A DNA stretch of 64,000 nt from Candidatus Amesbacteria bacterium (GCA_027331445.1 DAHWUD010000001.1:43157-107156); one strand, 5' to 3'; shown: positions 19,464-54,411, counted from the stretch's first letter. The notes: generated from the sequence alone by a model not told the origin. Numbers and translations are program-made.

Positions 19464-21314
19464 ATGTATCTTGCTTACCTGATCATTTTTCTGGCGGTCT
19501 TGCTGTTTTTTATCTTCCCGGCAGGCGCCCTCCTCGGTGACTGGTTCCTGCAGACCGATTCTTCCCCCGCCATTTCCGTTTCCCTGGGCCTGCTTGTGGT
19601 TACCCTGGAAGCCTATCTTTTAGGCCTGAGCCATTTGTACCCCCTGACCTTGCCTCTAATTGTTCTACAGGCCATTATCATCTGGCGGTACTTCCATCGC
19701 CGACATCTCTTTGTCAGCCTGCTTTCTCCCCGCCGCCTGTCATTGGTGGGAGCCGGTTTTGTTCTCCTGAGCGTTTTTATAAACAGCCTCCAGTTATTCC
19801 CTTTTGGTGCCGTCACCTCTAAAGGAATTTCTCTGTACGGGGCCCACTTTGTCGATTCCACCTGGCATTTGTCGCTCATCAACAGCCTTTCCCGATCCGT
19901 TCCCCCGCCCAACCCCCTTTATTCTGGCCTTCTGGTCACCAATTACCACTATTTGGTTGATCTGCAAATAGCTCTCATTCACAATCTTACCCGCATTCCC
20001 GTTCCGGTCTTATATTTCCAAATCATCGGCCCCTTTTACCTGTTGCTGCTCTCACTTCTGATTTATCGCTTTTCCGTTTCCTTATCGGGTCGGGCGCTCA
20101 CGGGAGTAATGGCTCTCTGTTTTATTATGCTGAGCAGCAATTGGTATTATTTTGCCCGGCTGGTTTTTCCTCTCGCGTCTGTTACTCCTTCAGTTGCCTG
20201 GGTCGAATTTTTCACCACCAAAACCGTCAATTATCCCTTATTGGTTTCACTCATCCTCCTTTTTGTTGTCCTTGAGATTATTCGGACAAGGCCCAGTCTT
20301 TCCCTTGCCCAAGCTCTTGTTTTGGGCTTTTTAACGGGCAGCATTTTTGGTATTAAGTCGCATACCGCCGTAGTTTTAGTGGCTGCATTGGGTTTCGTAG
20401 CTCTGCTAAATCTTTTTAGGAAAAATTTTTACTGGCCCCTCGTTTTTGTAGTTTCACTCATCACCGTTTTTATATTTTCCCAGTTGGTAATTTCCTCTCC
20501 CGCAGGGGGACTGCAATTTAGTCCCCTGTGGTTTATCAAAGTGATGTATGAAAGCACAGACCATTTAAATTTCCCCACCTGGGAGCTTCGCCGTCAGACT
20601 TTGTTAGCTCTCGGCTCATATCTCGGAATCGTCAGATTGTATTTCCAAGGCCTGTCCTGGTTTTTGTTCTTAAACTTCGGCCCCTTGCTTTTAGGTGTTG
20701 TGGCCCTGCTTGATAAAAAATTGGACCGGAATATAAAAACAGTTTTACTGGGTCTTTTTCTATTCGGGCTGTTGGCCACCTTTTTGTTTATTTATACCGC
20801 CACTGCCATTGTCACCATCCAGTTTGTTTACCTGTCGCTAGTCGCGGCCTCAATTCTAACTGCCTATTTTCTGTCCCGATTTTCCCGTTTTGTGGCCGTT
20901 TTCGCTTTTGTCGTCATCTGGCTGTCATTGCTTCCGGGCACTGCTTCCCTTACCGCCCAATATCTTAATTGGTCAAAGTCCTACAGTGTCTCTCCGGCCT
21001 TAACCGCCGCCTTAGTGTTCTTGACCAAGCTGCCTCCGGGAACCATTCTCACCGATGACACCTTTTCCGCCGGGTCATTCGTCCCAGCCTATTCAGGGGA
21101 CACCGTATATTTGGGCGACCATCAAATTTTAACCAGCTTGGGAATCGATTACTCAGATCGGAAAAAATACCCCGTTTCCTGCATCAAACCGCCGTACTCA
21201 ATAGCTTATATCCTTGCTCGCAGCCCCGTCTTAGATTGTCAGGCCCCGATTTTTGATTTAAACGGTGTTTATATCTACTTGGCCTCAAATAGTCCCCACA
21301 GCAGGTTACCGTAA
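19464..21314 (+). CDS. large polytopic membrane protein, function unknown (possible GT-C/polymerase)
   Basis: 616 aa, hydrophobic throughout; GC content drops in its 3' half; its 3' end overlaps the convergent minus-strand MTase gene by 40 nt. Confidence 0.4.
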   Translation: MYLAYLIIFLAVLLFFIFPAGALLGDWFLQTDSSPAISVSLGLLVVTLEAYLLGLSHLYPLTLPLIVLQAIIIWRYFHRRHLFVSLLSPRRLSLVGAGFVLLSVFINSLQLFPFGAVTSKGISLYGAHFVDSTWHLSLINSLSRSVPPPNPLYSGLLVTNYHYLVDLQIALIHNLTRIPVPVLYFQIIGPFYLLLLSLLIYRFSVSLSGRALTGVMALCFIMLSSNWYYFARLVFPLASVTPSVAWVEFFTTKTVNYPLLVSLILLFVVLEIIRTRPSLSLAQALVLGFLTGSIFGIKSHTAVVLVAALGFVALLNLFRKNFYWPLVFVVSLITVFIFSQLVISSPAGGLQFSPLWFIKVMYESTDHLNFPTWELRRQTLLALGSYLGIVRLYFQGLSWFLFLNFGPLLLGVVALLDKKLDRNIKTVLLGLFLFGLLATFLFIYTATAIVTIQFVYLSLVAASILTAYFLSRFSRFVAVFAFVVIWLSLLPGTASLTAQYLNWSKSYSVSPALTAALVFLTKLPPGTILTDDTFSAGSFVPAYSGDTVYLGDHQILTSLGIDYSDRKKYPVSCIKPPYSIAYILARSPVLDCQAPIFDLNGVYIYLASNSPHSRLP

Positions 21315-22024
21315 GTTATTCCTGACTTCAGTTCCAGCCTGCACAGCCGCCCGGCAGCCATTTTGCCGGGAACCAAAAAAGAAAATAAGTTAAACGATCC
21401 GATCCTTTCTTTTACTAATCCCGCACTTTCCAAAATCTCCTCCAGGTTTTTCGGATCATACTTCGCCAGATGCTGTTCATCCTCCAACTTGGGCACGGCA
21501 CTGACCAGGTCCAACAGCCTCTCCAGTATCCGCCACGAACTTTTGTAGTTGGGCGTGATAATGCATATCCAGCCCCGGGGATTGAGCATTTTGGTGAGCT
21601 GTTTCAACATTGCTTTTGCCTCCCCGATTCTAATGTGCTCGATCACGTCCATCATGACTATCAGGTCAAACTTTTCTGCTATCCCGGCTTGCCCGATGCT
21701 TCGGATGTCTGCTTGCCTCAATGTCACATTCTTAATTTTTTTATCATTCAGTGTTTTTTTCAAAAAGGCCAATGCCTCATCATTGTAATCCACACCCACA
21801 ATTTTCGCGACGGATTTGGCAAATCTGAATTCAAAATTGCCGGAACCTGTTCCCAGGTCAAGAATCTTCATATTCGGACGAATTAATCCTTCCACTGCAA
21901 TCAGCTTGTTGTTATGCCAATTGGATTGAAAAAAATTTCCGCTTCTGATTGCCTTATACTGATAATCCGCCGGAATTCCCAACTGCTTTTCTATAATAGT
22001 CCCTTTAAGACGGCTTTTTGTCAT
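21275..22024 (-). CDS. class I SAM-dependent methyltransferase
   Basis: ILDLGTGSGNF (motif I), VGVDYNDEALAF, DLIVMMDVIEH, LNPRGWICIITPN. Confidence 0.75.
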   Translation of the reverse strand: MTKSRLKGTIIEKQLGIPADYQYKAIRSGNFFQSNWHNNKLIAVEGLIRPNMKILDLGTGSGNFEFRFAKSVAKIVGVDYNDEALAFLKKTLNDKKIKNVTLRQADIRSIGQAGIAEKFDLIVMMDVIEHIRIGEAKAMLKQLTKMLNPRGWICIITPNYKSSWRILERLLDLVSAVPKLEDEQHLAKYDPKNLEEILESAGLVKERIGSFNLFSFLVPGKMAAGRLCRLELKSGITYGNLLWGLFEAK

Positions 22025-22054
22025 ATAATACTCGCTGGATATAGATCATTATAT
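22024..22054 (+). promoter_or_regulatory. candidate divergent promoter region (TATAAT at 22024-22029) between minus-strand MTase and GT4 gene
   Basis: 31-nt AT-rich intergenic spacer TATAATACTCGCTGGATATAGATCATTATAT between divergent start codons; perfect -10 hexamer; no -35 assessed. Confidence 0.2.
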
Positions 22055-23176
22055 ATGAACATTCTCATTTTAAATTGGCGGGATCCCAAAAATCCGCGTT
22101 CCGGTGGTGCAGAAGTCATCACTTATAAATACGCTAAATATTGGACTTCCCGGGGCCACCATGTTTTTTGGGTATCTAATTATTTTTCCGGTGCCAAATT
22201 AATCTCGTACGAACCAAACTTGACGATTTTCAGAATTAGGCCCGAACTTGGATACACGGTTAAAGGTTTAATCCTCTCATACCCGTTATTTCTCCGGAAC
22301 GCAACCGGAAAGGCCATCCAGATAATGAAAGAAAACCGGATAGATTTGGTCGTCGACGAAATTCATGGGTTGCCTTTTTTTACCCCTTTTTATTCCAGAC
22401 CCCGGCACGTCTTGCTTGTCTGTGAAGTAGCCGGACCAATTTGGGACAAGATGTTCCCTTTCCCCATTAGTAAAATCGGTAAACTCCTCGAAAAGATAAT
22501 TTACATTCTTTATCAGAATACTGAAACTTGGGCCATATCCCAAAATTCCCAAAAGGACATCTTTAATCTAAATCACAATAAAAATATTAAAATTCTTCCT
22601 TTGGGGATAGATCCTTCTCCTATTTCGTCGAAACCTAAATTTCCCTATCCTTCGGCCGTTTTCCTGGGACGGTTGGTCAGGATGAAGGGGATTGAATCAG
22701 CAATTTACGCCGCCGGCAGGATAAGCTATGAATTCCCCAAATTTAAACTTTACGTTGCCGGAGCCGGGTCTGAAGAATACCTGAATTTTCTCAAAAGCAA
22801 AGCCAAAGAAATAAAGGCCCGAAACAGCGTAATATTTTGCGGATACCTTTCCGACGCTCAAAAAAAACAGTTATTGGCCAAAAGCCATTTTCTTATTCAT
22901 CCATCTTTCAAGGAGGGCTTCGGATTAACCATTCTCGAAGCGGCTTCTGTGGGCACACCGGCGATAGCCAGGAAAGGCAGCAGTCTCGATGAGTTAGTCA
23001 AAGACAGGGTGACTGGATTTTTATTTACGAAAGATTCGGATATCAGCGCCTGTTTTAAAGCAGGCATGCTCAAGTCAAATTACGCCGCGCTGCAGTCAAC
23101 GGCAGTCCTGAATAGCCGAAGGTATTTCTGGGATGCTGTCCTTAAGAAATCCGGTTCAATCACCGGAATAAAATGA
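22055..23176 (+). CDS. GT4 family glycosyltransferase
   Basis: ORF track 21914..23176 overlaps the minus-strand MTase; preferred start ATG 22055 (MNILILNWRDPKNPRSGGAEV); C-terminal KEGFGLTILEAASVGTPAIARKGSSLDELV. Confidence 0.7.
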   Translation: MNILILNWRDPKNPRSGGAEVITYKYAKYWTSRGHHVFWVSNYFSGAKLISYEPNLTIFRIRPELGYTVKGLILSYPLFLRNATGKAIQIMKENRIDLVVDEIHGLPFFTPFYSRPRHVLLVCEVAGPIWDKMFPFPISKIGKLLEKIIYILYQNTETWAISQNSQKDIFNLNHNKNIKILPLGIDPSPISSKPKFPYPSAVFLGRLVRMKGIESAIYAAGRISYEFPKFKLYVAGAGSEEYLNFLKSKAKEIKARNSVIFCGYLSDAQKKQLLAKSHFLIHPSFKEGFGLTILEAASVGTPAIARKGSSLDELVKDRVTGFLFTKDSDISACFKAGMLKSNYAALQSTAVLNSRRYFWDAVLKKSGSITGIK

Positions 23177-24291
23177 ATATGCCAGTATATATATTCATCG
23201 GCACAACGGCAGAATTTATTAAAATTTCACCGGTCATTAAAGAGCTTAGAAGGAATCATGTCCAGTTTTGCCTAATTACTTCAGGCCAGGGAAAAATAAA
23301 TTTTGAGGAATTCAGGCCGTATCTTGGCCCTATAAAAGCCGACATCTCATTCGAACACAAGGGAGAAAAATCGTCTACCTTACATTTTGCCGTCTGGGCA
23401 GTCAGGACTCTGCTCGTGAGTTTGGTGTCGCTTCGGGACGTATTCCCAAAGTCAGATCGCGGGCAAACCCTCCTCGTCGTCCACGGCGATACCGTGTCTT
23501 CCCTGTGGGGTGCGCTGATCGCCTATGTCTACAAACTAAAGTTGGTTCATATCGAATCGGGACTGCGGTCATTCAATTTTTTGGAGCCTTTCCCTGAGGA
23601 AATATGCAGATATTTGCTTTCCCGGGTTGCCCGCATTAATTTTTGCCCCAATCAATGGAGTGTTGATAATTTAAGATCACGAAAGGGTATTAAAATTGAT
23701 ACTTTCCAAAACACACTCATTGATATTCATAAGTTTGCGGTCAGCCGAAAAATTAAACCGCCGCACATTCCTTCGAAATATTTTGTCCTGGTGATTCACC
23801 GCCAGGAACATGTAATTTTTGACCGCGGGAAGACACTCAGGATTATTAAGGAAATTTTAAATGCCACACCCCGATTGCCGTGCGTCTTTATCATGCATCG
23901 TCTGACCTCGAATTTTATTGACTCGCTGGGGCTTGAAGACTCATTTTTGAAAAATAAGCGCCTTATTTTATTGCCTAGGCTCTCATATTTTGAGTTTACC
24001 TCCCTTTTGCATAACTCTCAGTTTGTCATCACGGACGGAGGCAGCAACCAGGAAGAGTGCTATTACCTGGGCAAACCCTGCCTGATACTGAGAAATAGAA
24101 CCGAGAGAATTGAGGGTCTGGGTGAAAATGCGGTCCTGGGAGGCTTCAGCACAAAATATATTAGGGACTTTATCGGCAATTATAAACAATACGTTCGTCG
24201 TCCTATTGCCGCTTCCGCATCTCCGTCCGGGATAATCGGAAATTACCTGAAGGACTCGATACGGGACACTTCCAATTATGGCCGGAATTAA
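23173..24291 (+). CDS. UDP-N-acetylglucosamine 2-epimerase-like (non-hydrolysing, WecB/MnaA family)
   Basis: LLVVHGDTVSSLWGALIAYVYKLKLVHIESGLRSFNFLEPFPEEICRYL and FVITDGGSNQEECYYLGKPCLILRNRTERIEG align with the HVEAGLRS...PFPEE and SGGIQEEAP...RDTTERPE regions of WecB. Confidence 0.7.
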   Translation: MNMPVYIFIGTTAEFIKISPVIKELRRNHVQFCLITSGQGKINFEEFRPYLGPIKADISFEHKGEKSSTLHFAVWAVRTLLVSLVSLRDVFPKSDRGQTLLVVHGDTVSSLWGALIAYVYKLKLVHIESGLRSFNFLEPFPEEICRYLLSRVARINFCPNQWSVDNLRSRKGIKIDTFQNTLIDIHKFAVSRKIKPPHIPSKYFVLVIHRQEHVIFDRGKTLRIIKEILNATPRLPCVFIMHRLTSNFIDSLGLEDSFLKNKRLILLPRLSYFEFTSLLHNSQFVITDGGSNQEECYYLGKPCLILRNRTERIEGLGENAVLGGFSTKYIRDFIGNYKQYVRRPIAASASPSGIIGNYLKDSIRDTSNYGRN

Positions 24292-25345
24292 AATCAGCAT
24301 AATTGTTGCCACTTTTAACTCCGAATCCACGCTTCCCCAAGTCCTGGCCTCAATCGATAGACAAAAATTTCCCAAAAAATCGATTGAAACGTTAGTAGTT
24401 GACGGAGGCTCTACGGATAGGACCAAACAAATAGCCAGGAAGTTTGGTGCCAGGATCATCAATAATCCGAAAACCCAGCAAAACTATGCTAAATTCCTGG
24501 GTTTTACCAGAAGTCACGGAAGATATCTTCTTTTTTTAGACTCGGACGAAATGCTCGTGGACCCGACGAGCCTCAGGCGCAAAATCGATTTTTTTTCAAA
24601 ACACCACGAAATAAAGGTCGCTATTCCCAGCGGTTATCTGACCGGTCCCAAAAACTCAATTGTTGCCAATTTTGTGAATGAATTTGGGGATCCTTTTTCC
24701 TTTTTCATCTATCGTCTCTCAAAAAGTTCCGACAGGTTTATACGGACCATGCGCGGTCGATACCCGGTCCGGCTAGAAAATGACAACTTCCTGGTAGTGG
24801 AAATCAAAAATGCTTCTCAAATTCCGATCCTTGAGCTGACGGCCGGCGGTAGCATGTTTGATTCGATTTATTTCAGGCAAAACTTCCCAACTGCAATCCG
24901 CGGCCCCGAACTGCTAAATCATGCCTTCTATCTGATCAACTCGCTGTCACCCCTGCTGGCAATTACTAAGGACGACCCGATTATTCACCACCCATCCGGC
25001 TCTCTTAAAAATTACCTGAACAAGCTTTCCTGGCGCATCAAGAACAATATCTATTTTAAGGATACTATGGGAATTTCAGGGTACTCTGGCAGGGAGGAAT
25101 ACCAAATTGGTCTGACAAACCGATTAAAAAAATTCATGTTTATTCCTTATTGCCTCACAATTCTATTTCCGGTAGTTGATTCAATCTCATTATCCGTTTC
25201 CCGTAAAGATGTGAAATATTTGCTTCATTTCCCGTTAAGTGAATATACAGCCATGTTGATCATTTTTCATTTAGTTGCGAAATCCTTCGGAATCATGCCT
25301 TCGCTCAACACTTATGGATCCAATCAGCTCATCGCAAAACCTTGA
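24278..25345 (+). CDS. GT2 family glycosyltransferase
   Basis: ISIIVATFNSESTLPQVLASIDRQKF...VVDGGSTDRT...LFLDSDE. Confidence 0.65.
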   Translation: MAGIKISIIVATFNSESTLPQVLASIDRQKFPKKSIETLVVDGGSTDRTKQIARKFGARIINNPKTQQNYAKFLGFTRSHGRYLLFLDSDEMLVDPTSLRRKIDFFSKHHEIKVAIPSGYLTGPKNSIVANFVNEFGDPFSFFIYRLSKSSDRFIRTMRGRYPVRLENDNFLVVEIKNASQIPILELTAGGSMFDSIYFRQNFPTAIRGPELLNHAFYLINSLSPLLAITKDDPIIHHPSGSLKNYLNKLSWRIKNNIYFKDTMGISGYSGREEYQIGLTNRLKKFMFIPYCLTILFPVVDSISLSVSRKDVKYLLHFPLSEYTAMLIIFHLVAKSFGIMPSLNTYGSNQLIAKP

Positions 25346-25357
25346 TTACCTTTGATT

Positions 25358-26197
25358 CTACGCTTCCCAGAAGCTGTTCTGAATTGACAATTTAGCCAGG
25401 GGATGGAAGTTTTTTGATAAATATTGAGTCAGTCTTTTTACATCGAACGCATCCTCGATTAACATCGTTGCACCATTGTATCTATCAAAAAAATGTTTAG
25501 CCCCTTGTAGTACTTCCACCTCATGCCCCTCTACATCAATCTTAACGAAGACTTTGGATTTGAATTTCAATCGCGGATTTTTGAATATACTGTCGAGCTT
25601 GGCCGTCTTGACGGTAATTTGTTCACTCGTTTTAAAGCTCACAATCATTTTTGCCGGTTTGAAATAGTAAAACCTCTTTAATCCGTCGTGGTTACTTAAG
25701 GCGACGTTAAACAACCGGACATTTTTTAGTTTGTTTTCCCTCACGTTTTTAGAAAGTAGCTTGAAACTCACCGGATCCGGCTCAAACGAAACGGTTTTTA
25801 AGTGAGAGCCATGCGTATTTGCCAATTTAGCAATAGCCACGGTGTATTTACCGAATCCGGCTCCAATATCAATAAATGTCACATCAACCCCTTCGAGGAT
25901 TTCTTTGATTATTAGCGAAATTAATTTATTTATGTCCACTCTTTCAAACGCGGGGGAAGCAGTCTCAATGTCAAACAGCGTTTCCCTGACAAAAAAATTC
26001 CCAAACCTTGTTTTTAGTAATAATTCCTTTGATCGTGTAGTTGTTGCCGATTTAAACTTCAGAAGCGCGTAAAAAAGGAATTCAAATTCATTAATGAATA
26101 CCTTGAATTGATAATTGCGGCATTCAAAAGGGGAAATTAGTTTACAAAATATTAATTGAGGATAAAACCTCAACTTTGATAGTACATCCATCCGCAT
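25358..26197 (-). CDS. FkbM-family methyltransferase
   Basis: FIDIGAGFGKYTVAIAKL ... VKIDVEGHEVEVLQGA, the characteristic FkbM pair of motifs. Confidence 0.7.
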   Translation of the reverse strand: MRMDVLSKLRFYPQLIFCKLISPFECRNYQFKVFINEFEFLFYALLKFKSATTTRSKELLLKTRFGNFFVRETLFDIETASPAFERVDINKLISLIIKEILEGVDVTFIDIGAGFGKYTVAIAKLANTHGSHLKTVSFEPDPVSFKLLSKNVRENKLKNVRLFNVALSNHDGLKRFYYFKPAKMIVSFKTSEQITVKTAKLDSIFKNPRLKFKSKVFVKIDVEGHEVEVLQGAKHFFDRYNGATMLIEDAFDVKRLTQYLSKNFHPLAKLSIQNSFWEA

Positions 26198-32870: not shown

Positions 32871-33162
32871 TGGGGATTTTTATAACCACATTTAAACCAG
32901 ATCTTAAGCAGCTAAACTTCACTTTTTCGCCGGGATTAACTTTAATAATTTGTCCGGGTGCAATATCCGCTTTGTTTATTCGGAAAAGGCCACTTGTCAC
33001 CACCGTGAATTCAGTAGCAACCTTGTGAAAGTGAGTTGGCTCTTCCTCCCCGGTTTTGTATTTTTTGATCGCAATCTCAAAGTGCTTGGTCTTAACCAGT
33101 GTCGGTTTAAAGTCTCCAATGAACCATCCCTTTTTAAACTTTTTGACGGAATATTTCTGCAT
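32839..33162 (-). CDS. small cupin-domain protein
   Basis: 107 aa; EEPTHFHKVATEFTVVTSGLF...PGEKVKF pattern typical of a single cupin barrel. Confidence 0.35.
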   Translation of the reverse strand: MQKYSVKKFKKGWFIGDFKPTLVKTKHFEIAIKKYKTGEEEPTHFHKVATEFTVVTSGLFRINKADIAPGQIIKVNPGEKVKFSCLRSGLNVVIKIPSVKGDKYEGG

Positions 33163-33167
33163 TCCTT

Positions 33168-38137: not shown

Positions 38138-38139
38138 CT

Positions 38140-41535: not shown

Positions 41536-41537
41536 CA

Positions 41538-43444: not shown

Positions 43445-43445
43445 T

Positions 43446-44126: not shown

Positions 44127-44134
44127 TTGTCGTC

Positions 44135-45235: not shown

Positions 45236-46571
45236 CAAATTTTCTCTTCCACTAGTCTTTCTGGCCTTCATTATCATTTTGTCTCAAACCCAATTCACAC
45301 CCTGGCCGGAAATGTTGCTCTGGCCGTATCTTATTAACCATGGCTGGCTGGCCTACCGCGATATTGCCATCGCCCATTCTCCCCTTCTCCCTTACCTACT
45401 GGCCGGTTACTATAAATTTTTCGGGGAATCACTTCTGTCATTGAAAATATTTTCCTGGATTCTGGTACTTTTTTCAGCTCTGCTTACCTACTTTATCGCC
45501 AAAAAATTGTTTGGGAAAAACCCCGCCCTGGCCGCTTTCCTGCTTTTCCTGGTCTTACAGTACAGGTATGAAGGGAATGGTGTCTGGTTTGATGTCTTGC
45601 TTGCCCCGCTGTTTCTTCTCGTTTACTTTTCGCTCAAGGAAAAAAAATACGTTTGGTTCGGTTTTTTTTGGGCCCTCGCGTTTTTTGTCAAGCAAACCGC
45701 AGTCTGGCTTTTAATTCCGGTTTTATTTACATTTATTAGCCGGAAATTTCCGGTGCCGAAACTATTTACGGCTTTTTTGGGAGCTTTACCCGTTTTATTG
45801 GTCATTCTTTTTTTTCTGATCATTTCCCGGGACATTCCTTACTACTTTTTTTGGAGCATTCAATTCGGTCTGTTCATCCTGCCCCGGATGCCGCCCCAAT
45901 ATCCCAGCCTCAGTCAATTTGTCTCCGGCTCCTGGCCTTTCCTGATCGCTTTTTTTATCCCGTTGATAAAATCATCTCCCCGGAGACAAATCAGCCTGGA
46001 ACTACTCTTTTTTGGTTTTTTTTCGGCCTTCGGAGTCATCCCGCGCTGGGAGCTCTTTCATTTCCAGCCGGCTCTGCCCTTCCTCAGTTTATTGGTGGTC
46101 CAAATACTGCAGCACGCCTCCTGGGTCGGTCGCTACTCCAAATTAGCTTTGGGCATCTTCGTGACGGTATTCGCTGTCATCTTTATATTCCACACTAAAA
46201 ATATTTTATTCCGTCCAGATCGGTTTTCTGAACCCGAAGTTAGCCAGGCTGAAATCTATACATTGGCCCATACCCTGCCGGGAGACACTATATTTATCCT
46301 CAACTGGTGGGACAGTCTCTATGCTCAAACCGGCAGACTGCCGCCCAAACCCTGGGTTCCTCAACTGCCCCAATACCTGTCTCTGCCCGGCATGCAGGAA
46401 GCCCTGATCGCCGGGCTCTCTTCGCATCCTCCAAAATTAATCCTGTTTAAGCTCTATGACTCCGGGTCGTACATTCCGAAAAAACTTGATGCCTATATTT
46501 TTTCCCACTACACAGAAGTTATTTTCATTGGGAATCAGTACGAAGTTCTGGCCCCGATCCGGAATGAATAA
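45225..46571 (+). CDS. polytopic membrane protein, putative GT-C glycosyltransferase (DUF2029-like)
   Basis: ORF track 45084..46571; preferred start ATG 45225 (MTANKFSLPLVFLAF); YRDIAIAHSPLLPYLLAGYY loop motif; GC-rich codon usage resumes within this gene. Confidence 0.4.
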   Translation: MTANKFSLPLVFLAFIIILSQTQFTPWPEMLLWPYLINHGWLAYRDIAIAHSPLLPYLLAGYYKFFGESLLSLKIFSWILVLFSALLTYFIAKKLFGKNPALAAFLLFLVLQYRYEGNGVWFDVLLAPLFLLVYFSLKEKKYVWFGFFWALAFFVKQTAVWLLIPVLFTFISRKFPVPKLFTAFLGALPVLLVILFFLIISRDIPYYFFWSIQFGLFILPRMPPQYPSLSQFVSGSWPFLIAFFIPLIKSSPRRQISLELLFFGFFSAFGVIPRWELFHFQPALPFLSLLVVQILQHASWVGRYSKLALGIFVTVFAVIFIFHTKNILFRPDRFSEPEVSQAEIYTLAHTLPGDTIFILNWWDSLYAQTGRLPPKPWVPQLPQYLSLPGMQEALIAGLSSHPPKLILFKLYDSGSYIPKKLDAYIFSHYTEVIFIGNQYEVLAPIRNE

Positions 46572-47967
46572 GTTTTGGGTCGGTTTTGGAATTTTCATTG
46601 CCTTTTGTTTGCTTTATTGGTACCGCCTGCCGCAATCTCTTTACATCAATACCGATTACGGAAAGGATCTGTTCGCCATTGCCAAAATCTCCCGGGGCCA
46701 TTTCTCGCTTCTCGGCCCGGTATTGAGCGCCGGATTTTTTGCCGGGCCCTATTATTACTACCTCATGGTTCCGGCCTTGTTGCTGTCCGGATTTAACCCC
46801 TATGCCCTGGCCGCCACCAGTGTAGTTTTATTCTCGTCTTCCCTGGCTGCGGCCTTTTATTTTTTCAGCCGGAAGTTTTCCCTCGTCTCCTCCGTCCTGG
46901 CCGTCCTGGCTTTGGGAATTTCACCGCTTTTCATTATGGCTGCCCGGGAGCCGGCCAACGGCCTGACTTATTTACCTCTCCTCCTGCTTTTTATCTGTTT
47001 GGTTTATTTTCAGCCCCGGTTTTCGTTATGGTCGGTTATGGCCCTGGGTCTTTTGGCGGGTGTGATTCTTAATTTTGACCCCGTCTCGGTTTTGGCCCTT
47101 TTCCCTCTCACCCTTTATTTGATCTTCAAAATCGGTCTTAAAAAAGCCGTCATTTACGGATTTTTTGTCCTCATCACCTATCTGCCTCTGATGGCCTTTG
47201 AAGTCAAAAACAATTTTGTCATTTCCCGGGGATTTTTCCTCTACAAAAATTACCGGACGTTTTTAAATAACAATAATGTCGTCGGCGCGGTTTCCGGCAG
47301 TAAAAATTTAATCGAAAATTTCTCCCTCATTTCCTCCCGTTTGTTCCCGCTGGTCGGCCTGACCCCCCTCGTCTGGTTGTTGCTGGTTTCAGTCCCGCTC
47401 ACCATCCGCCGCTTACGCCCCGGGTCGTTCATTATTTCCCTCATTTCTTTTGTCCTAACCGTTGTCCTGGTCCGCTTCAAGCTGGAAATCCACTACCTGT
47501 TTCCGGTTTCGCTGCTGCTGCTGTTCTCGCTGCTTTATGCCGTTGCTTCCCTCAAAAAAACGGTCCTGCTTCTTGTCGTGGTCGTCCTGCTTGTCGCCGG
47601 GTTTCCCGTCAGCCGCTATCGTCCCACCACTCAGACATTTTCCCTATTTCAAAACGCCGTTGACTTTACTCTTAGCCACCGCCTCATTGACCCGCAGACG
47701 CCGTTTAACCTGATTGCCATTACGGACCCGCATGATTATGTCCCTATCGGCAATGAATACCGCTTTGCTTATTTAAAGCGGGGGTTGGCCGTTAACACCG
47801 AGTTCCAATACCCCCAGTCCCGGGTGCTGCTTTTGTTTTCCCAGATCGGGGATTTCGATATCAGCAGTCTGAATAACTGGGAAGTAGACCAGTTTGGCCG
47901 GTCGTATTTGAAAAACTATCAGGAATTTCACGCCGGCCAGGTGATCATCTACCGGGTGGAAAAGTAG
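46564..47967 (+). CDS. polytopic membrane protein, putative GT-C glycosyltransferase
   Basis: ORF track 46456..47967; preferred start ATG 46564 (ATGA overlap; MNKFWVGFGIFIAF); hydrophobic throughout with C-terminal soluble tail. Confidence 0.4.
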   Translation: MNKFWVGFGIFIAFCLLYWYRLPQSLYINTDYGKDLFAIAKISRGHFSLLGPVLSAGFFAGPYYYYLMVPALLLSGFNPYALAATSVVLFSSSLAAAFYFFSRKFSLVSSVLAVLALGISPLFIMAAREPANGLTYLPLLLLFICLVYFQPRFSLWSVMALGLLAGVILNFDPVSVLALFPLTLYLIFKIGLKKAVIYGFFVLITYLPLMAFEVKNNFVISRGFFLYKNYRTFLNNNNVVGAVSGSKNLIENFSLISSRLFPLVGLTPLVWLLLVSVPLTIRRLRPGSFIISLISFVLTVVLVRFKLEIHYLFPVSLLLLFSLLYAVASLKKTVLLLVVVVLLVAGFPVSRYRPTTQTFSLFQNAVDFTLSHRLIDPQTPFNLIAITDPHDYVPIGNEYRFAYLKRGLAVNTEFQYPQSRVLLLFSQIGDFDISSLNNWEVDQFGRSYLKNYQEFHAGQVIIYRVEK

Positions 47968-47990: not shown

Positions 47991-48755
47991 GTGGCATCAC
48001 CCAACATGGACGAGGGTCTTCTAGATCGCTTTCACGCCATCGAGGAAAAACATTGGTGGTGGGCCGGCCGGCGCCGGCTAGTCGGCATGTTATTGGCCGC
48101 GGACCATCCTCAAAAAATGCTGGACATCGGTTGCGGCACCGGAGAAACCCTTACTTACCTGCATCAGCTCTACCCCCGGGCCCAACTGTATGGTATTGAC
48201 ACTTCAGATGCCGCCGTCAGGTATTCCAAAAACCGCGGCCACCGGCACATCTACAAAGCTTCTGCTCTCAAGCTGCCCTTTCCGGACAAATTTTTTGACG
48301 CCGTCCTGTTTCTGGATGTGTTAGAACACATCGCCCGGGATAAGCAGGCCCTTTTGGAATCAAAACGCGTCCTCAAGCCCGGCGGTAAAATTATTATTAC
48401 CGGTCCAGCCCTACAGTTTATTTGGTCCCGCCATGATACCCGTCAGGGTCATGTCCGCCGTTTTACCCGCCGCCAAATCCGGGCTCTGGCCCGATCGGTC
48501 GGTTTGGATGTGGTTTTTATCAGTTATTTTAATTTCATTTTTAGCCCCGTCATTATTTCCGTCCGTCTGCTGTCCAAACTGCCGTTTCTGGCCAAATTAT
48601 CCGATTACGACAACGGCATCAATTTTGACATCGCCGATTACGGCCTGGTTAATTCGCTTTTAACCAAGCTCTTCGTCACCGAGATTAACCAGCTGAAATA
48701 TCTGCATTATCCCTGGGGTATTTCCCTGGGCGCGAGTCTAAAAAAACTGCGCTAG
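47991..48755 (+). CDS. class I SAM-dependent methyltransferase
   Basis: [40 protein letters not shown]; alternative start at 48006. Confidence 0.7.
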
Positions 48756-49445
48756 GTTGTACTTCAAAATGCACCACACGGCCCACACCCCATCTTTCCA
48801 GTCAATCTTTTTTCCTTCGCCGTAGCTTCTCCCTGAATAACTGATTCCTACTTCATAAATCCGGCATTTCATAGCCGCAACTTTGGCTGTAAACTCTGGC
48901 TCGAACCCGAATCTATTTTCCTCGATGACTAATTTTTTGGCTACATCCCTGGTAAACGCTTTATACCCGGTTTCCATGTCAGTCAGGTTTAAGTTGGTAA
49001 GGATGTTAGATAGAACTGTCAGCCAGCCGTTACCCACACTATGCCAGAAATAATGCACCCGGTGCGGCATCTGGCTCACAAATCTCGATCCGTAAACCAC
49101 GTCCGCCTGCCCCGCCGCTATCGGCTTTATCAATAGGGGATATTCCTGTGGGTCATACTCCAGATCCGCGTCCTGGATGATCACCACCTCCCCGGAAACT
49201 TTTTTTAGCCCGGCCCGGATGGCTGCTCCCTTGCCGGTATTTTTTTCCGTTTTTATCCCCACTACTTCCCGGCCGGTATTTTTTTTAATTTCCCTCCAGG
49301 TGCCGTCCATGGACCCGTCGTCTACCGCAATTATTTCCTTTTTTACCCCCGGAATTTTAACCGCCCGTACCCGCCTGATGGCCGTACCGATCGTCCGCTC
49401 CTCATTGTACGCGGGTATGATTATGGACAACTTCTTTATTCGCAT
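48738..49445 (-). CDS. GT2 polyprenol-monophosphate sugar synthase (Dpm1/Ppm1-like)
   Basis: 235 aa; [21 protein letters not shown]...[13 protein letters not shown]...[10 protein letters not shown]...[20 protein letters not shown]...ADVVYGSRF - the compact DPM synthase architecture; only minus-strand gene in this region. Confidence 0.7.
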
Positions 49446-49475
49446 ATGAGCCGCATTATAGCGTAAAATCTATCT

Positions 49476-50753
49476 ATGAAAATTGCAATTATCGGCGCCG
49501 GCTTTACCGGATTGGCGGCCGCTGATGTTTTGCTTCATCAAAGCCATGAAGTGACAGTCTTTGAAAAGGCTGACGTCGCCGGGGGTTTAGCAGCGGGGTT
49601 TAAAGACCCGGGTTGGGACTGGTCGCTGGAGAAGCATTATCATCACCTCTTCACCTCAGACGCTTTTATCCGCGATCTGGCGGCTCACATCGGCCATCCG
49701 CTGGAATTTCATCGTCCGGCCACTTCCACCTGGGTCCCCCAGGGGATTTACCGGCTGGATTCTCCGCTGCACCTTCTGCTTTTTCCCGGGTTACCATTTT
49801 TAGACCGCCTGCGCACCGGGTTGGTTCTGGGTTTTTTTAAATTGAATCCCTTTTGGCGGCCGCTGGAAAAAATTACCGCCGAGAAATTTATCCTAGCCGC
49901 CATGGGCCGGGCCTCCTGGCGCGTGCTTTGGCAGCCTTTGCTCGAGCATAAATTCGGCCGTTACTCATCCCGGGTTTCCGCTTCCTGGTTCTGGGCCCGG
50001 ATCTACAAACGCAGCCCCGTTTTGGGGTATCCGGAAGGCGGATTTCAATCTCTGGCCGCTTCCCTGACCGGGCATCTGCAAACCGCCGGCGGCCGTTTTA
50101 TTTTCAACACCGGCATCGAGAAAATTACTCCCGTGACTGACGGCCTGGGTTTACTAACCGACTCCCAAAAAGCGTTTACCTTCGATCGGGTAATTTGCAC
50201 GCTGCCGTCCCCGTTGTTTACCAGAATCTGTCCCGCCCTGCCTGCCGCTTATCAAAACCACTTAAATTCCCTGTCCGGTGTCGGCGCCGTCAATCTGGTT
50301 TTGGCACTTAAAAAACCGTTCCTACCCCGGCACATTTACTGGCTCAACGTCAACGTCCCCGGGACCCCGTTTTTGGCCGTGGTGGAGCACACCAATTTTA
50401 TTTCCTCCTCTCATTACTCCGGCCGGCATCTGGTCTATCTCGGCAATTATCTGCCTTTCGCCCACCCTTATTTTCAGAAAAATCCGGACCAGCTGCTTTC
50501 GGAATTTTTACCTGCCCTCCGGCGAATTAACCCGGATTTTGACCCTTCCTGGGTCGTCGGCAGTTGGGTCTGGAAAGCTCCTTTCGCTCAACCCATCGTC
50601 CCCATAAATTATTCCTCTGCATTACCCTCCATCGCTACCCCCGTTCCGCATCTTTTCCTGGCGAATATTCAGCAGGTTTATCCCTGGGACAGAGGGACTA
50701 ATTACGCTGTAGAATTGGGACAAAGAGCCGCTAAATTATGTTTGACAGATTGA
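49476..50753 (+). CDS. FAD/NAD(P)-binding oxidoreductase (amine-oxidase / protoporphyrinogen-oxidase-like fold)
   Basis: N-terminal MKIAIIGAGFTGLAAADVLLHQSHEVTVFEKADVAGGLAAGF dinucleotide-binding motif; 425 aa. Confidence 0.55.
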   Translation: MKIAIIGAGFTGLAAADVLLHQSHEVTVFEKADVAGGLAAGFKDPGWDWSLEKHYHHLFTSDAFIRDLAAHIGHPLEFHRPATSTWVPQGIYRLDSPLHLLLFPGLPFLDRLRTGLVLGFFKLNPFWRPLEKITAEKFILAAMGRASWRVLWQPLLEHKFGRYSSRVSASWFWARIYKRSPVLGYPEGGFQSLAASLTGHLQTAGGRFIFNTGIEKITPVTDGLGLLTDSQKAFTFDRVICTLPSPLFTRICPALPAAYQNHLNSLSGVGAVNLVLALKKPFLPRHIYWLNVNVPGTPFLAVVEHTNFISSSHYSGRHLVYLGNYLPFAHPYFQKNPDQLLSEFLPALRRINPDFDPSWVVGSWVWKAPFAQPIVPINYSSALPSIATPVPHLFLANIQQVYPWDRGTNYAVELGQRAAKLCLTD

Positions 50754-51997
50754 AAGCCCACGCCCGGACTGCCACCGCCCGCCAATCTGCTCTGACCTCC
50801 GTCAGCACCCTGGCCAATGGTTTTTTGGGAGCCTTATTCTATTTCCTGCTGGCCCGGCTTTTGGGGGCTTTCGACTACGGCGTTTTTTCCGTCATCGTTA
50901 CCACCATGATCACCCTGGCCGCCGTCTTCGATTTCGGTTCGGATCAAAGTCTCATCATGTTTGTTCCCAAATTCCCCGCCCCGGAATTTTTCCCCTACGC
51001 AAAGCTGGCTCTGCTGGTAAAATTAGCCAGCAGTTTGGTCATTTTTTTAGCCTTTTACTTTTTTTCCACCCCCATCGCCGGATCCGTATTTCACCAGCCG
51101 TCCCTCTCCGCCGCCCTGCCGCTGGTCGGCATCGGCGTTTTCACCCAGCTGCTGTTTTCCTTTTCTACTTCGCTGGCCCAGGCCCAGCAGAAATATCTTC
51201 TGTGGGGCGGCCTGTTTGTCGGCACCAATTTTTTCCGTCTGCTGTTTCTGTTTTTGCTCTATTTCTCGGCGCATCTTCATAGCCTGTCAGTCATTTTTAT
51301 TTATTTGTTGTTTCCTTTTCTGGGCTTTCTCTTTTACGTTCTGGTTACCCGCCTGCACTTTGGCCGGGCCCGCATTACCGGCGCCGTCGTCCGGCGGTTC
51401 TTCTCCTTCAATAAATGGGTGGTGGGATTTACCCTTCTCTCCGCCGTGGCTTCCCGTTTGGACGTTTTCTTTACCGCCCGATACGCCAACCTGGTGGCCG
51501 TCGGGGTTTACAGTCTGGCCGGTCAGATCGCCACCATCATGCCTCAGCTGACTTCCGCCATCGGCGCCGTTACCGCTCCCAAGTTTTCGTCTTTTACCTC
51601 TTCCCGCCAGACATCGGTTTATACCGGCAAGACGGTCCTGCTCAGTTTCGGGGTGGCTGTAATCTCGGCCCTGGTGCTGATTCCTCTCTCGTTGGTCGTT
51701 TTCTCATTCTCCGGAAAATCTTACTCCGCCGGCTTCGGACCGTTTTTACTGCTCCTGTTGTCGTTGGCCATATTCCTGATCACCGCTCCCGTCCGCGATG
51801 GTCTGTTGTATTACTATGCCCGGCCGCAGATCTTTTTTTATACCGCGGTTTTGCAGATTTTGGTTTCCTGTCTGGCCAGCCCGGTCTTCATTCTCCGGTA
51901 CTCCATCGCCGGAGCCGCCTTCGTGGTTTTGCTGAATACCCTGCTTACCACCGTCATCTATCTCGTCTTTTATTTCCGTCTTAAAGAAACTTCATGA
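50738..51997 (+). CDS. Wzx-like oligosaccharide flippase (MOP superfamily polysaccharide biosynthesis protein)
   Basis: LANGFLGALFYFLLARLLGAFDYGVFSV N-terminus typical of Wzx/PST proteins; about 12 TMs over 419 aa. Confidence 0.55.
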   Translation: MFDRLKAHARTATARQSALTSVSTLANGFLGALFYFLLARLLGAFDYGVFSVIVTTMITLAAVFDFGSDQSLIMFVPKFPAPEFFPYAKLALLVKLASSLVIFLAFYFFSTPIAGSVFHQPSLSAALPLVGIGVFTQLLFSFSTSLAQAQQKYLLWGGLFVGTNFFRLLFLFLLYFSAHLHSLSVIFIYLLFPFLGFLFYVLVTRLHFGRARITGAVVRRFFSFNKWVVGFTLLSAVASRLDVFFTARYANLVAVGVYSLAGQIATIMPQLTSAIGAVTAPKFSSFTSSRQTSVYTGKTVLLSFGVAVISALVLIPLSLVVFSFSGKSYSAGFGPFLLLLLSLAIFLITAPVRDGLLYYYARPQIFFYTAVLQILVSCLASPVFILRYSIAGAAFVVLLNTLLTTVIYLVFYFRLKETS

Positions 51998-52839
51998 CCG
52001 TTCCGCGCATTACCGTCCATACCCTGGTGAGAAACGAATCCCGCTGGATTTGGTTTGCCCTGATGTCCATCATTAATTATGTCGATGAAATTATGGTTTG
52101 GGACACGGGATCGACTGATGACACGGTTGCTGTCATCAAATCCATTTCCGATCCCAAGCTGCATTTTCAGGAAGTCGGGGAAGTGACCCCGGAATCGTTT
52201 ACCCTCATGCACAACCGCATGTTGCGGCAGACTCACACCGACTGGATGTTAATCCTGGATGGTGATGAAATCTGGCCCTTCCCCGTTATCAGCTCTTTGG
52301 TCACGGCCATCCGCAGCCAGGGAGGAAACTTCGATTTTTTTGTCTGCCATCACTATGACCTCTTGGGTGACGTTTACCACTATCAGGAAGAAACCGGAGG
52401 CCAGTATCAGATTGGTGAATATTCCGGCCAATTTTCTATCCGGGCGGTTAATTTGGCCCGTCTTCCCGGCCTGCATTTTTGCAAACCCCACGGCCAGATA
52501 GGCTTGTTTACAGCCGACGGTCCACTGCTCCAGGATTTACCCACCGCCGCCTACAAACTTCTTCCGGGTTCCTACTTTCACGCGACCCACTTGGTCCGTT
52601 CCTCGTCCCTGAACCTTGACCTCCAGGTCATCAAACGCTCTTCAAAATACAAATACGAACTCGGTCTGGCCTTTCCCCAGGACTTTTCTTATACGGAAGT
52701 CTTTTACCTGCCCCGGCCCCGGCTGGTCCCCTCACCCTGGGTTCGTCGCTCTTTCGGCTATACCCTTAATGCTCTTTGGCAAACTCCACTTAAGATTGCC
52801 AAACGCCGGCTTTTGGCCACACCCAAATCCGGCTACTGA
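51994..52839 (+). CDS. GT2-like (GT-A fold) glycosyltransferase, tandem paralog 1
   Basis: ITVHTLVRNESRWIWFALMSIINYVDEIMVWDTGSTDDT...LILDGDEIWP; ATGA coupling. Confidence 0.5.
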   Translation: MTVPRITVHTLVRNESRWIWFALMSIINYVDEIMVWDTGSTDDTVAVIKSISDPKLHFQEVGEVTPESFTLMHNRMLRQTHTDWMLILDGDEIWPFPVISSLVTAIRSQGGNFDFFVCHHYDLLGDVYHYQEETGGQYQIGEYSGQFSIRAVNLARLPGLHFCKPHGQIGLFTADGPLLQDLPTAAYKLLPGSYFHATHLVRSSSLNLDLQVIKRSSKYKYELGLAFPQDFSYTEVFYLPRPRLVPSPWVRRSFGYTLNALWQTPLKIAKRRLLATPKSGY

Positions 52840-52840
52840 T

Positions 52841-53671
52841 ATGACCCGGCCACGTCTTGTCGCCCACACCGTTGTCAGAAATGAAGAGTGCTGGGTATGG
52901 TACGCTCTCCGTTCGGCTCTGCCGTTCGTGGATCAGATCCTGGTCTGGGACACCGGCTCCGTGGACCGAACTGTCCCCATTATCAAATCTATTCATTCCC
53001 CCAAATTAAAATTTCGGACCGTCCCCCTCACTCCTGATGAATCCGCCCTGTCCCGTACCCGTCAGCGTATGTTGCAGTCGACCCGGGCCGGTTGGTTGAT
53101 GATTCTGGACGGTGATGAAGTCTGGCCGGAATCATCCCTCAAACAAATCGTTGATTTCATTGCCGAGAAAGGCCGGAATTATGACTCTATCATCGTTCCG
53201 ACTTTAAACTGTGTTGGGGACATCTTTCATATCTGCAGTCAAAAATCCGGCCACTACAAAATTGCCGGTCAGATCGGTCACTACAACCTCCGTTTCATAA
53301 ATTTGCATCGGGTTAAGGGCCTGCATGTTTCCAATCTCCCGGGTAAACTTCAGGGTTACTTTGACGGCCACGGGGTTCAGGTTCAGGATCGTGACCACCG
53401 GCGCATTGCCTTTTTAGACGCTCCCTATTTGCATCTGACTCATCTCACCCGCTCCCGGCAGCGCCGAAATGAAACCGCCGTCTATTGGCGAGCCGTCAAA
53501 AAACGTATAGAATTGGGCCTTCCCATGCCCGAAAACTTTGTTTATCCGCAGGTGTTCCGGTTGTCCGCACCCGCCGGGTCAGCCTTTCCCTGGACCCGCC
53601 GCTCCCGGGCCTATGTTCTGGCAGCCCATCTTTTCCGACCGGCCCGGAGTTTAAAACGTCTGTTTTTTTGA
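52841..53671 (+). CDS. GT2-like (GT-A fold) glycosyltransferase, tandem paralog 2
   Basis: ORF track 52616..53671; preferred start ATG 52841 directly after upstream stop; LVAHTVVRNEECWVWYALRSALPFVDQILVWDTGSVDRT...MILDGDEVWP - collinear with 51994 product. Confidence 0.5.
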   Translation: MTRPRLVAHTVVRNEECWVWYALRSALPFVDQILVWDTGSVDRTVPIIKSIHSPKLKFRTVPLTPDESALSRTRQRMLQSTRAGWLMILDGDEVWPESSLKQIVDFIAEKGRNYDSIIVPTLNCVGDIFHICSQKSGHYKIAGQIGHYNLRFINLHRVKGLHVSNLPGKLQGYFDGHGVQVQDRDHRRIAFLDAPYLHLTHLTRSRQRRNETAVYWRAVKKRIELGLPMPENFVYPQVFRLSAPAGSAFPWTRRSRAYVLAAHLFRPARSLKRLFF

Positions 53672-53673
53672 AC

Positions 53674-54411
53674 GTGACCGATTACTACCAAATTGCCCAA
53701 GCCGCGAGCCTTAAAATCGGTAACCATTCCGGTCTGCTTTATTTGCGGCAGCTTTGCCGGCAGGCCCCCAAAATTCTGGATGTCGGTTGTGGTGAGGGTT
53801 CCAGGCTGGTTACACTTTTACCTCAAAGTCGGATCGGGTGGGGGATAGATGCCTCAAAAAAAGCCATCACTCAGGCCAAAAAACAATACCCCCATCACCG
53901 TTTTCAGGTAGCCGATGCCGCCCGTCTGCCCTTTGCCGACGGTTTTTTTGATCTTACCTATTCCGCTTTTACCCTAGAGCACGTCCTCGATCCTCAAACG
54001 GTTATTTCCGAAATGTTTCGCGTCACCCGCCCCGGGGGCCTGGTGGTCATTCTCTGTCCTAATTACGGTGCTCCCAACCGTCGCTCTCCGGTTTCCGCCG
54101 CCTCTCCCTGGCGCAAATTAGTTTCCGGCCTCTGGCAGGACTTCTTTCCCCGCCCCGGTCTCAATTGGCAGACCGTCGTCCCCCGAGAAATCTACCGGCA
54201 CATCGATGATGACACCACTGTCGAGCCCTATTTGCACTCACTCCTGCATTATCTTTCGCCTTTTCACCGCATCGTTTTGGCTTCTTCGGTTTGGGATCAG
54301 GAGCCGCCCTCCCGCCACACTCGTAAGGGTCTGATCCGGCTTCTAGGTAAGTGGCAGGCTTTTCCTTTTAAATATTGGGGCCCCCAACTCTTTGCCGTAG
54401 CTATAAAATAA
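53674..54411 (+). CDS. class I SAM-dependent methyltransferase
   Basis: ORF track 53485..54411 overlaps upstream gene by 187 nt; in-frame GTG at 53674 preferred; ILDVGCGEGSRLV, FDLTYSAFTLEHV, TRPGGLVVILCPN. Confidence 0.55.
   Translation: MTDYYQIAQAASLKIGNHSGLLYLRQLCRQAPKILDVGCGEGSRLVTLLPQSRIGWGIDASKKAITQAKKQYPHHRFQVADAARLPFADGFFDLTYSAFTLEHVLDPQTVISEMFRVTRPGGLVVILCPNYGAPNRRSPVSAASPWRKLVSGLWQDFFPRPGLNWQTVVPREIYRHIDDDTTVEPYLHSLLHYLSPFHRIVLASSVWDQEPPSRHTRKGLIRLLGKWQAFPFKYWGPQLFAVAIK

Follow-up and report, generated by a model that had tools for sequence, protein, structure and literature searches.

A methyltransferase-rich surface-glycan locus, probably from the Microgenomates group, and the multiply O-methylated oligosaccharide predicted from its genes

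Glycans with several O-methyl groups are known best from mycobacteria, in the form of phenolic glycolipids (PGLs) and methylmannose polysaccharides (MMPs), and are associated with host-cell interaction and resistance to a glycosidase (PMC2958813, PMC9679996). In Mycobacterium leprae, two glycosyltransferases (GTs) and four methyltransferases (MTs) place five O-methyl groups on the trisaccharide of PGL-1, and the genes concerned (ML0126, ML0127, ML0128, ML2346c, ML2347 and ML2348) form MT-MT-GT clusters (PMC2958813). The mycobacterial MMP cluster comprises MeT1, pMeT3, ManT and MmpH, and a model of alternating mannosylation and methylation has been proposed for it (PMC9883506). MftM is a class I MT for the 2-O-methylation of a glucose, and methylation of the glucan has been suggested to protect against a glycosidase (PMC9679996). 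In Vibrio cholerae, one serotype-defining methyl group is placed at the terminus by RfbT (PMC9929944). Here we describe a 64-kb stretch of DNA (DAHWUD010000001.1, 43157-107156; 'the window', numbered from its first nucleotide), occupied almost wholly by glycan-biosynthesis genes on the + strand, in which genes for S-adenosylmethionine (SAM)-dependent MTs lie among those for GTs. The region belongs to a very large island of genes for cell-surface glycans, probably from the Patescibacteria (candidate phyla radiation, CPR), Microgenomates group.

Part of the surface glycan made by this island is probably methylated at several positions. We give a probability of roughly 0.6 to a reading in which a lipid-linked oligosaccharide is methylated by the MTs of a conserved cassette, flipped across the membrane and transferred by a membrane glycosyltransferase of the GT-C fold. 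The island would be assembled from modules (A to C, below), each centred on such a GT-C enzyme, and its MT genes are the following.

21275-22024, - strand: MT1, class I MT of 249 aa, in module A (Methyltransf_31, 83 bits)
25358-26197, - strand: FkbM1, FkbM-family MT of 279 aa, divergent from the adjoining GT-C gene (PF05050, 58 bits)
38140-38835, + strand: MT2, class I MT of 231 aa (Pfam class I MT match)
38832-39533, + strand: MT3, class I MT of 233 aa with GCWDG as motif I (Pfam class I MT match)
40594-41535, + strand: MT4, class I MT of 313 aa with a C-terminal extension, in an open reading frame (ORF) from 40369 (Pfam match)
42653-43444, + strand: FkbM2, FkbM-family MT of 263 aa with a pair of hydrophobic helices at its N-terminus (PF05050, 62.5 bits)
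43446-44126, + strand: MT5, class I MT of 226 aa (Methyltransf_23, 86 bits)
47991-48755, + strand: MT6, class I MT, with a public gene call from 48006 (gene call in L083), convergent with the GT2 gene at 48738 (Methyltransf_11, 87 bits)
53674-54411, + strand: MT7, class I MT of 245 aa with a GTG start (Methyltransf_11, 79 bits)

The seven class I enzymes score 52-87 bits against Pfam gathering cutoffs of 21-30 (Methyltransf_11/23/25/31), and the FkbM-type pair, besides matching PF05050 (cutoff 22.7 bits), reach 92.5 (FkbM1) and 92.8 bits (FkbM2) with TIGR01444 (cutoff 37.7). The original prediction, made from the sequence before any search, had announced ten SAM MTs including two of FkbM type; the FkbM-type pair stands, as do the coordinates of all nine enzymes it listed, each borne out by a Pfam domain match, while the total comes down to nine. 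The motif I, D/E-V-x-EH and LKPGG-like motifs which it quoted are found in our alignment of the class I enzymes (A4), where D56, G58, G62, E129-H130 and G151 are invariant and motif I is mostly of the LDxGCGxG type. The FkbM-type enzymes carry the D-x-G-A-x-x-G and K-x-D-x-E-G-x-E motifs, with D86, G88, A89, G92, K189, D191, E193, G194 and E196 invariant in their alignment (A1), and the AlphaFold2 (AF2) model of FkbM2, with a mean predicted local distance difference test score (pLDDT) of 90.9, has a class I MT fold according to Foldseek. None of the nine has a predicted transmembrane helix, so they would be soluble or peripheral proteins. Their pairwise identity is at most 37%, so the run did not arise from recent duplicates.

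Class I and FkbM hidden Markov models (HMMs), applied to the window ORFs with 120 aa or more, detected no tenth MT, and neither did Pfam scans of 55 window ORFs. The class I HMM was built from the window's own MTs and recovered 14 of the 14 Pfam-labelled MTs in related loci. The 415-aa ORF at 33878-35125 has no MT domain.

Five of the nine MTs (MT2, MT3, MT4, FkbM2 and MT5), mutually divergent, form a cassette at 35.1-44.1 kb, the core of module B, together with an AftD-like GT-C, a GT2 and two GT4s.

35137-37311, + strand: GT-C730b, a 724-aa protein which heads the cassette, with no Pfam match and AftD-like GT-C by its model
37304-38137, + strand: GT2 of 277 aa, paired with MT2 (PF00535, 72 bits)
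39530-40606, + strand: GT4, in an ORF from 39374 with a likely ATG at 39530 (PF00534, 85 bits)
41538-42656, + strand: GT4 (PF13692, PF00534)

The MT-MT-GT4-MT-GT4-FkbM-MT arrangement predicted for 38.1-44.1 kb matches the Pfam-labelled genes exactly, with the correction that five MTs, not three, lie in this alternating stretch. All cassette genes are on one strand with overlaps or gaps of 1-13 bp from 37304 to 44135, which suggests an operon on gene packing alone; when 30-49.9 kb was scanned for promoters and terminators, the counts equalled those expected from shuffled sequence. The gene content of the cassette is kept in five loci of related metagenomic contigs (L084, L085, L087, L090 and L093), two of which (L087 and L093) are colinear with it, at only 35-64% identity. 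The order in L087, with identities to the window genes in brackets, and the variants in the other loci are as follows.

L087, first part: GDPD, two NTP-transferases, a 438-aa protein, a 707-aa membrane protein, GT2
L087, next: MT (MT3, 53%), MT (MT2-like, 31%), GT4 (49%), MT (MT4, 64%), GT4 (50%)
L087, last part: class I MT of 282 aa, MT (MT5, 45%), a 372-aa protein, a 448-aa protein, Wzx
L093: the L087 gene order, with eight MTs in 22 kb
L090: shares with the window MT4 (60%), FkbM2 (43%), MT5 (51%) and nucleotidyltransferases (up to 81%)
L084 and L085: cassette variants

Among 83 related loci, at a criterion of at least 35% identity and 80% coverage, orthologs were found of MT2 (13), MT3 (12), MT4 (4), FkbM2 (5) and MT5 (5). 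Every cassette MT therefore has orthologs of its own, and these are distinct, separately conserved genes. The four MT4 orthologs (L087, L090, L093 and L161) are 60-64% identical to it and the five of MT5 45-51%, and FkbM2 homologs of 39-53% identity sit in syntenic loci, as do homologs of the 724-aa GT-C730b. The GTs are kept alongside. The first GT4 is 46-49% identical to the colinear GT4 of L087, L090 and L093, and the second 50-56% identical to that of L084, L087, L090 and L093. The GT2 has orthologs of 36-45% identity in L085, L087 and L088, the GT2-MT pair occurs in L095 as well, and wherever the order could be read (L085, L088 and L095) MT2 comes after GT2.

Between the second GT4 and MT5, the window and L090 have an FkbM-type enzyme, whereas L087 (17474-18322) and L093 (17346-18182) have a class I MT, 278-282 aa long, a non-orthologous replacement. 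That this slot always holds an MT, yet of varying family, argues that methylation is its selected function. A GT-C730-bearing locus, L097, encodes at 2534-4999 an 821-aa GT2-GT2-MT fusion with a C-terminal class I MT, the first GT2 domain of which is 32% identical to the cassette GT2. With five MTs for three transferases, the cassette at 35.1-44.1 kb is the only part of the island which predicts more than one methyl group per sugar on average.

Several other features of the related loci were seen. MT ORFs of 439-526 aa occur in L094, L103 and L167, and two cassette relatives encode radical-SAM enzymes absent from the window (L084, 6684-8180; L085, 14657-15682), one with a weak B12-binding-domain match and one with a SPASM domain; L085 additionally encodes a DegT aminotransferase. 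These relatives may tailor their glycan further, C-methylation being one possibility.

The membrane partner of the cassette belongs to a family which we call GT-C730, with a second member in module A.

26257-28467, + strand: GT-C730a, 736 aa, no Pfam match, in alignment A2, 33% identical to GT-C730b

Neither protein matches any Pfam or NCBIfam model. GT-C730a is 30-46% identical to the GT-C proteins which adjoin MT cassettes in L084-L088. The GT-C730 family models as an AftD-like GT-C-fold glycosyltransferase, an assignment based on hhalign comparison with PMT_2-like paralogs and on Foldseek. The family profile aligns with the PMT_2-like GT-C paralogs of the window at 92.7% probability (E 4e-7), and the AF2 model of GT-C730b (pLDDT 89.4) finds AftD (6w98) as its best match in the PDB, at E 3.8e-10 and a template-modelling (TM) score of 0.53 over 638 columns, followed by STT3/OST, DPY19, PglB, AftA and ArnT. 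D42, in the first loop, is invariant in alignment A2. Kinship of the 724-aa protein with YfhO was considered and rejected, hhalign against a single YfhO-like window protein giving a probability of 2.5%, which is not significant. The family is large, with 626 representative clusters at E <= 1e-30 in an exhaustive search, and its members are annotated 'hypothetical' wherever they are named; one named homolog comes from Woesebacteria. Some members are of about 1,000-1,290 aa; three of those listed carry PF02018, and P0079 carries PF01476.

Export would be the task of genes outside the cassette, and both flippase and polymerase/ligase domains of a Wzx/Wzy-type pathway are present in the window.

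17398-18648: second Wzx flippase (PF01943)
50738-51997, + strand: Wzx-type flippase (PF01943)
60841-62190: gene with a Wzy_C domain (PF04932)

In the reading that we favour, the GT2 and the GT4s would build a short oligosaccharide on polyprenyl phosphate at the cytoplasmic face of the membrane, and each MT, using SAM, would methylate a particular hydroxyl during chain growth. The Wzx-type flippase would then export the product, and the adjoining GT-C would use this product, or sugars that derive from it, to glycosylate a protein or a wall polymer on the outside of the cell. SAM is cytoplasmic and the MTs lack transmembrane helices, so methylation would precede flipping. Other glycans or branches would receive one or two methyl groups from the enzymes of module A (MT1, FkbM1) and of module C (MT6, MT7). 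We infer from gene content that the acceptors are sugar hydroxyls, and likewise the order of the steps and the nature of the final acceptor.

An unusual density of MTs had been the starting point of the original prediction, and it is unusual only against other phyla, being close to the norm for loci of this type in related metagenomic contigs. The nine MTs fall within 33 kb, or 2.7 per 10 kb, with a maximum of seven per 20 kb. The background, 52 glycan loci of at least 15 kb from diverse phyla (out of 80 loci) around a GT2 orthologous to that at 48738-49445, holds 24 MTs in 1.04 Mb (0.23 per 10 kb) and no more than two in any one locus, although very distant background MTs may escape a detector built from the window's own enzymes. 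The binomial probability of the window's rate under this background is about 6e-8. In metagenome loci of the GT-C730 family, 103 class I and 18 FkbM-type MTs (121 in 79 loci, 898 kb) amount to 1.35 per 10 kb, about 6-fold above background, one locus having eight in 22 kb, and against this rate the window gives P of about 0.04. For each GT2 or GT4 gene there are 0.64 MTs in the GT-C730 loci and 0.56 in the window, against 0.22 in the background loci. The density of the window is near the upper end of normal for this type of locus and is not a one-off.

This enrichment, together with the MT-GT synteny kept across relatives and the GT2-GT2-MT fusion, argues strongly against the MTs being housekeeping or otherwise unrelated enzymes (quinone, biotin, rRNA or tRNA, or lipid) which lie amid glycan genes by chance. 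The class I enzymes do give weak NCBIfam matches to UbiG, UbiE, BioC, RlmA and CmoB. These scores are all far under the curated cutoffs, the best being 25-60 bits against cutoffs of 103-420 for the UbiE, UbiG, BioC and rRNA/tRNA models (UbiG 60 against 103; BioC 58 against 185), and the best models for MT1, CpaM and UbiG, are likewise far from being reached. We regard a housekeeping role as very improbable. The grouping with ubiquinone- or rRNA-type enzymes which would have told against a sugar-methylating role is thus not borne out by these cutoffs for any class I MT.

Searches of PDB sequences with MT1, FkbM1 and FkbM2 returned generic matches or none. With the class I profile the best PDB matches are phosphoethanolamine N-methyltransferases (E 1e-24); 6uv6, a 'D-glucose O-methyltransferase', is at the same level as one among generic matches, and further PDB and Foldseek matches (fibrillarin, DnrK, MitM and the N-domain of EvdMO1) include N-, O- and C-methylating class I enzymes. 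MT2 reaches 40 bits with the MftM model NF041255 (cutoff 200), and FkbM1 matches PF05575, the RfbT family, marginally (28.6 bits, gathering score 27.9), with no match for FkbM2. As the matches are generic, the assignment to sugar hydroxyls rests on gene context: the synteny with GTs, the GT2-GT2-MT fusion, the lack of transmembrane helices and the finding of no aminotransferase or amino-sugar pathway among the window ORFs scanned.

Some of the class I MTs might instead methylate groups on the glycan other than sugar hydroxyls: amino groups, carboxylates, phosphates or a phospho-alcohol head group, phosphoethanolamine then becoming phosphocholine. The substituent would be CDP- or NDP-activated and supplied by neighbouring genes. 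Such a supply could be read into the conserved set which precedes the cassette, listed here from Pfam and NCBIfam.

Within 30606-35125, + strand: GDPD-like protein of 255 aa
31363-32082 and 32079-32870, - strand: two genes like sugar-1-phosphate nucleotidyltransferases
33168-33827, - strand: beta-PGM-family (beta-phosphoglucomutase) HAD protein, a phosphatase or mutase
33878-35125, + strand: 415-aa protein with no family match

This sub-module (30606-35125) is kept in L087, L090 and L093 at up to 81% identity; its two small paralogous nucleotidyltransferases are 34-37% identical to a single match in L087 and up to 81% to those of L090. By NCBIfam, however, they are most like sugar-1-phosphate enzymes. 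The phosphoethanolamine N-methyltransferase matches, for their part, span the generic SAM-binding core only (profile positions 33-133), and sugar O-MTs, C-MTs and lipid MTs score like them. That no aminotransferase or amino-sugar pathway was found among the window ORFs scanned also speaks against this reading, and we consider non-hydroxyl methylation unlikely.

The nine MTs are divided among about three modules, and the window has two paralogous GT-C730 genes, two Wzx flippases and one break in base composition.

Module A, 21.3-30.6 kb: MT1, GT4, WecB-like epimerase, GT2, FkbM1, GT-C730a, RmlD-like reductase, GT4
Module B, 30.6-48 kb: precursor genes, GT-C730b, GT2, MT2, MT3, GT4, MT4, GT4, FkbM2, MT5, membrane proteins, GT-C
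Module C, first half, from 48 kb: MT6, GT2 like polyprenyl-phosphate-sugar synthases, FAD oxidoreductase, Wzx
Module C, second half, to 57.5 kb: two GT2s, MT7, GT4, GT2, GT-C

The break concerns the stretch at 21-46.5 kb, which has 42.8% GC against 51.6% and 52.7% in its flanks and which contains seven of the nine MTs; GC at third codon positions (GC3) and AT skew also shift at 21000-46500. The cassette-bearing relatives have 30-45% GC, which suggests that modules A and B were acquired horizontally, within the lineage, from lower-GC relatives. As for the lineage itself, every named top homolog of the FAD oxidoreductase (52-56% identity) is from Candidatus Daviesbacteria, Woesebacteria, Blackburnbacteria or the 'Patescibacteria group', and nine window proteins found in a sequence collection were each a singleton or in a two-member cluster at 90% identity. 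It is these best hits, rather than a phylogeny, that make a Microgenomates-group CPR source the most likely. Over the whole window (1-64000), AT skew on the + strand is strongly negative (to -0.41) and GC skew negative; nearly every gene is on this strand, and many encode Leu/Phe-rich membrane proteins.

A probably acquired block, two paralogous GT-C730 genes, two Wzx flippases, and relatives whose modules vary from one to eight MTs with either family in the same slot would all be expected if the nine MTs served several variable glycans or branches, as a mosaic of interchangeable modules for surface diversity which leaves each product with zero to a few methyl groups. It fits this alternative too that no conserved orthologs of MT1, FkbM1, MT6 and MT7 were found in the related loci examined. 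We take it as a serious possibility, though a less likely one than the reading that we favour. It has difficulty with the cassette at 38-44 kb, where five non-redundant, separately conserved MTs are packed with only three GTs in a tightly overlapping run, which would be difficult to account for unless one small product were methylated more than once. It modifies the reading that we favour and does not replace it, and is plausible for MT1, FkbM1, MT6 and MT7. The heavily O-methylated glycan first proposed for this region is thus partly supported, by MTs embedded among GTs and by a conserved five-MT cassette; a single, heavily methylated glycan is an overstatement.

The lack of orthologs for these four MTs is one of several points which weigh against methylation of a lipid-linked oligosaccharide by the cassette enzymes. 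Sequence, profile and fold searches tie no MT to a characterised sugar O-methyltransferase, and two cassette enzymes, MT3 (GCWDG) and MT4 (GCFIG), have an atypical SAM motif I without its second glycine, although this is retained in their orthologs. The WecB-like protein (159 bits against an equivalog cutoff of 210) and the RmlD-like protein both score under their equivalog cutoffs. No initiating phosphoglycosyltransferase (Bac_transf or MraY-like) was found among the window ORFs scanned by Pfam; it may be elsewhere on the contig, outside the window. Finally, our literature searches found no glycan chemistry for any member of this lineage, and nothing on the surface chemistry of Microgenomates, Patescibacteria or CPR, or on their glycosylation combined with MTs.

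The remaining genes of the modules and flanks are these.

21914-23176, + strand: GT4 (PF00534)
23173-24291, + strand: WecB-like UDP-GlcNAc 2-epimerase (PF02350)
24278-25345, + strand: GT2 (PF00535)
28494-29390, + strand: RmlD-like reductase (PF04321, 190 bits), 57% identical to the colinear L093 gene
29387-30592, + strand: GT4 (PF00534, 140 bits), 61% identical to the colinear L093 gene
From 44135, + strand: 366-aa membrane protein (gene calls in L001, L083)
45225-46571, + strand: PMT_2-type GT-C (PF13231)
46564-47967, + strand: 467-aa membrane protein (gene calls in L001, L083)
48738-49445, - strand: GT2 of 235 aa like polyprenyl-phosphate-sugar synthases (PF00535, 110 bits)
49476-50753, + strand: FAD-dependent oxidoreductase, PRK07233 family (NF005560, 417 bits, cutoff 252)
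51994-52839 and 52841-53671, + strand: two tandem GT2-like paralogs (Pfam)
54415-57532, + strand: GT4, GT2 and PMT_2-type GT-C, downstream of MT7 (Pfam)

The genes at 44135-47967 are colinear in L084, L087, L090 and L093, and those at 49476-53671 in L084 and L090. The GT2 at 48738-49445 has AglJ, ArnC and PpgS-like proteins as its best NCBIfam models, all under cutoff, and is about 60% identical across many phyla, with no taxonomic signal. The FAD oxidoreductase, of a family labelled 'hypothetical', is phytoene-desaturase/HpnE-like and lies directly upstream of Wzx in L084 and L090 as well; that it modifies the polyprenol carrier is speculation. The tandem GT2s both match a single L084 GT2 (43% and 37%), which indicates local duplication. 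Of the three genes after MT7, the GT4 and the GT2 have colinear counterparts of 44-52% identity in L084 and L090; no match to the third, the GT-C at 56141-57532, was found there. At the other end of the window, a YfhO-like protein (1285-3543) is followed by a row of six GT-C-like membrane proteins related to PMT_2/PTPS, each with 529-551 aa (3518-5173 and 6398-14464; 17-30% mutual identity), with an unassigned 415-aa ORF (5170-6417) between them. GT-C-type genes in the window number at least 12, counting those at 45225, 56141 and 62187 and both 730-aa proteins. Rfam and tRNA scans of the window gave no match and no SAM riboswitch.

The cassette allows a definite prediction, that its 9 kb (35137-44126) suffice for a multiply methylated oligosaccharide. 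A bolder proposal would be that a Microgenomates CPR cassette of at least five MTs and three GTs builds a near-permethylated, hydrophobic lipid-linked oligosaccharide which the AftD-like GT-C transfers to the surface; this is speculative and we rather doubt it. If true, the product could be a surface glycan that is polymethylated yet distinct from the mycobacterial systems compared here, and as a coat it could shield ultra-small episymbionts from glycosidases, lectins or phages. Confirmation of the 9-kb prediction would make CPR cell envelopes chemically accessible, by antibodies, by lectins or by metabolic labelling that uses methyl-labelled methionine, and would yield several regiospecific sugar methyltransferases. 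Should the glycan prove unmethylated, the class I MTs which are very common neighbours of glycosyltransferases need another explanation. What distinguishes this locus is the combination of an unusually high and conserved content of tailoring MTs with a CPR host and an unannotated GT-C partner.

The described systems each share part of this combination. GT-C730 has in common with AftD, STT3, PglB, AftA and ArnT the GT-C fold and an invariant Asp in the first loop, but is only 10-14% identical to AftD and other GT-Cs, and GT-C730b, half as long as AftD, has none of the latter's additional regions. RfbT/WbeT of V. cholerae (PF05575) is an FkbM-like MT within a surface-polysaccharide locus, as here (PMC9929944); its single methyl contrasts with the multiple methylation predicted for the window, and only FkbM1 resembles it, marginally. 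For mycofactocin, MftF-like models (TIGR04283, TIGR03965) and that of MftM are among the best for the GT2 at 37304 and for MT2, but the scores are far under the cutoffs (81 against 182 bits for the GT2; for MT2 as given above), the window has no mycofactocin genes and the mycobacterial mftM is not clustered with mftF. In the MMP cluster, as in the cassette, a GT4-family transferase adjoins dedicated SAM MTs, the parallel already drawn in the original prediction. MMP is, however, cytoplasmic and not exported, with the recycling hydrolase MmpH, whereas no hydrolase domain was recognised among the window ORFs scanned by Pfam, and the flippases and many GT-Cs of the window point to an exported product. 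PGL-1 is made on a phenolphthiocerol lipid in an actinobacterium, without GT-C, Wzx or Wzy, and the likeness to it is one of gene arrangement rather than shown orthology, the product of the window being a prediction from its genes. In both, clusters bring small MT genes together with those for GTs, and MTs outnumber GTs (PMC2958813).

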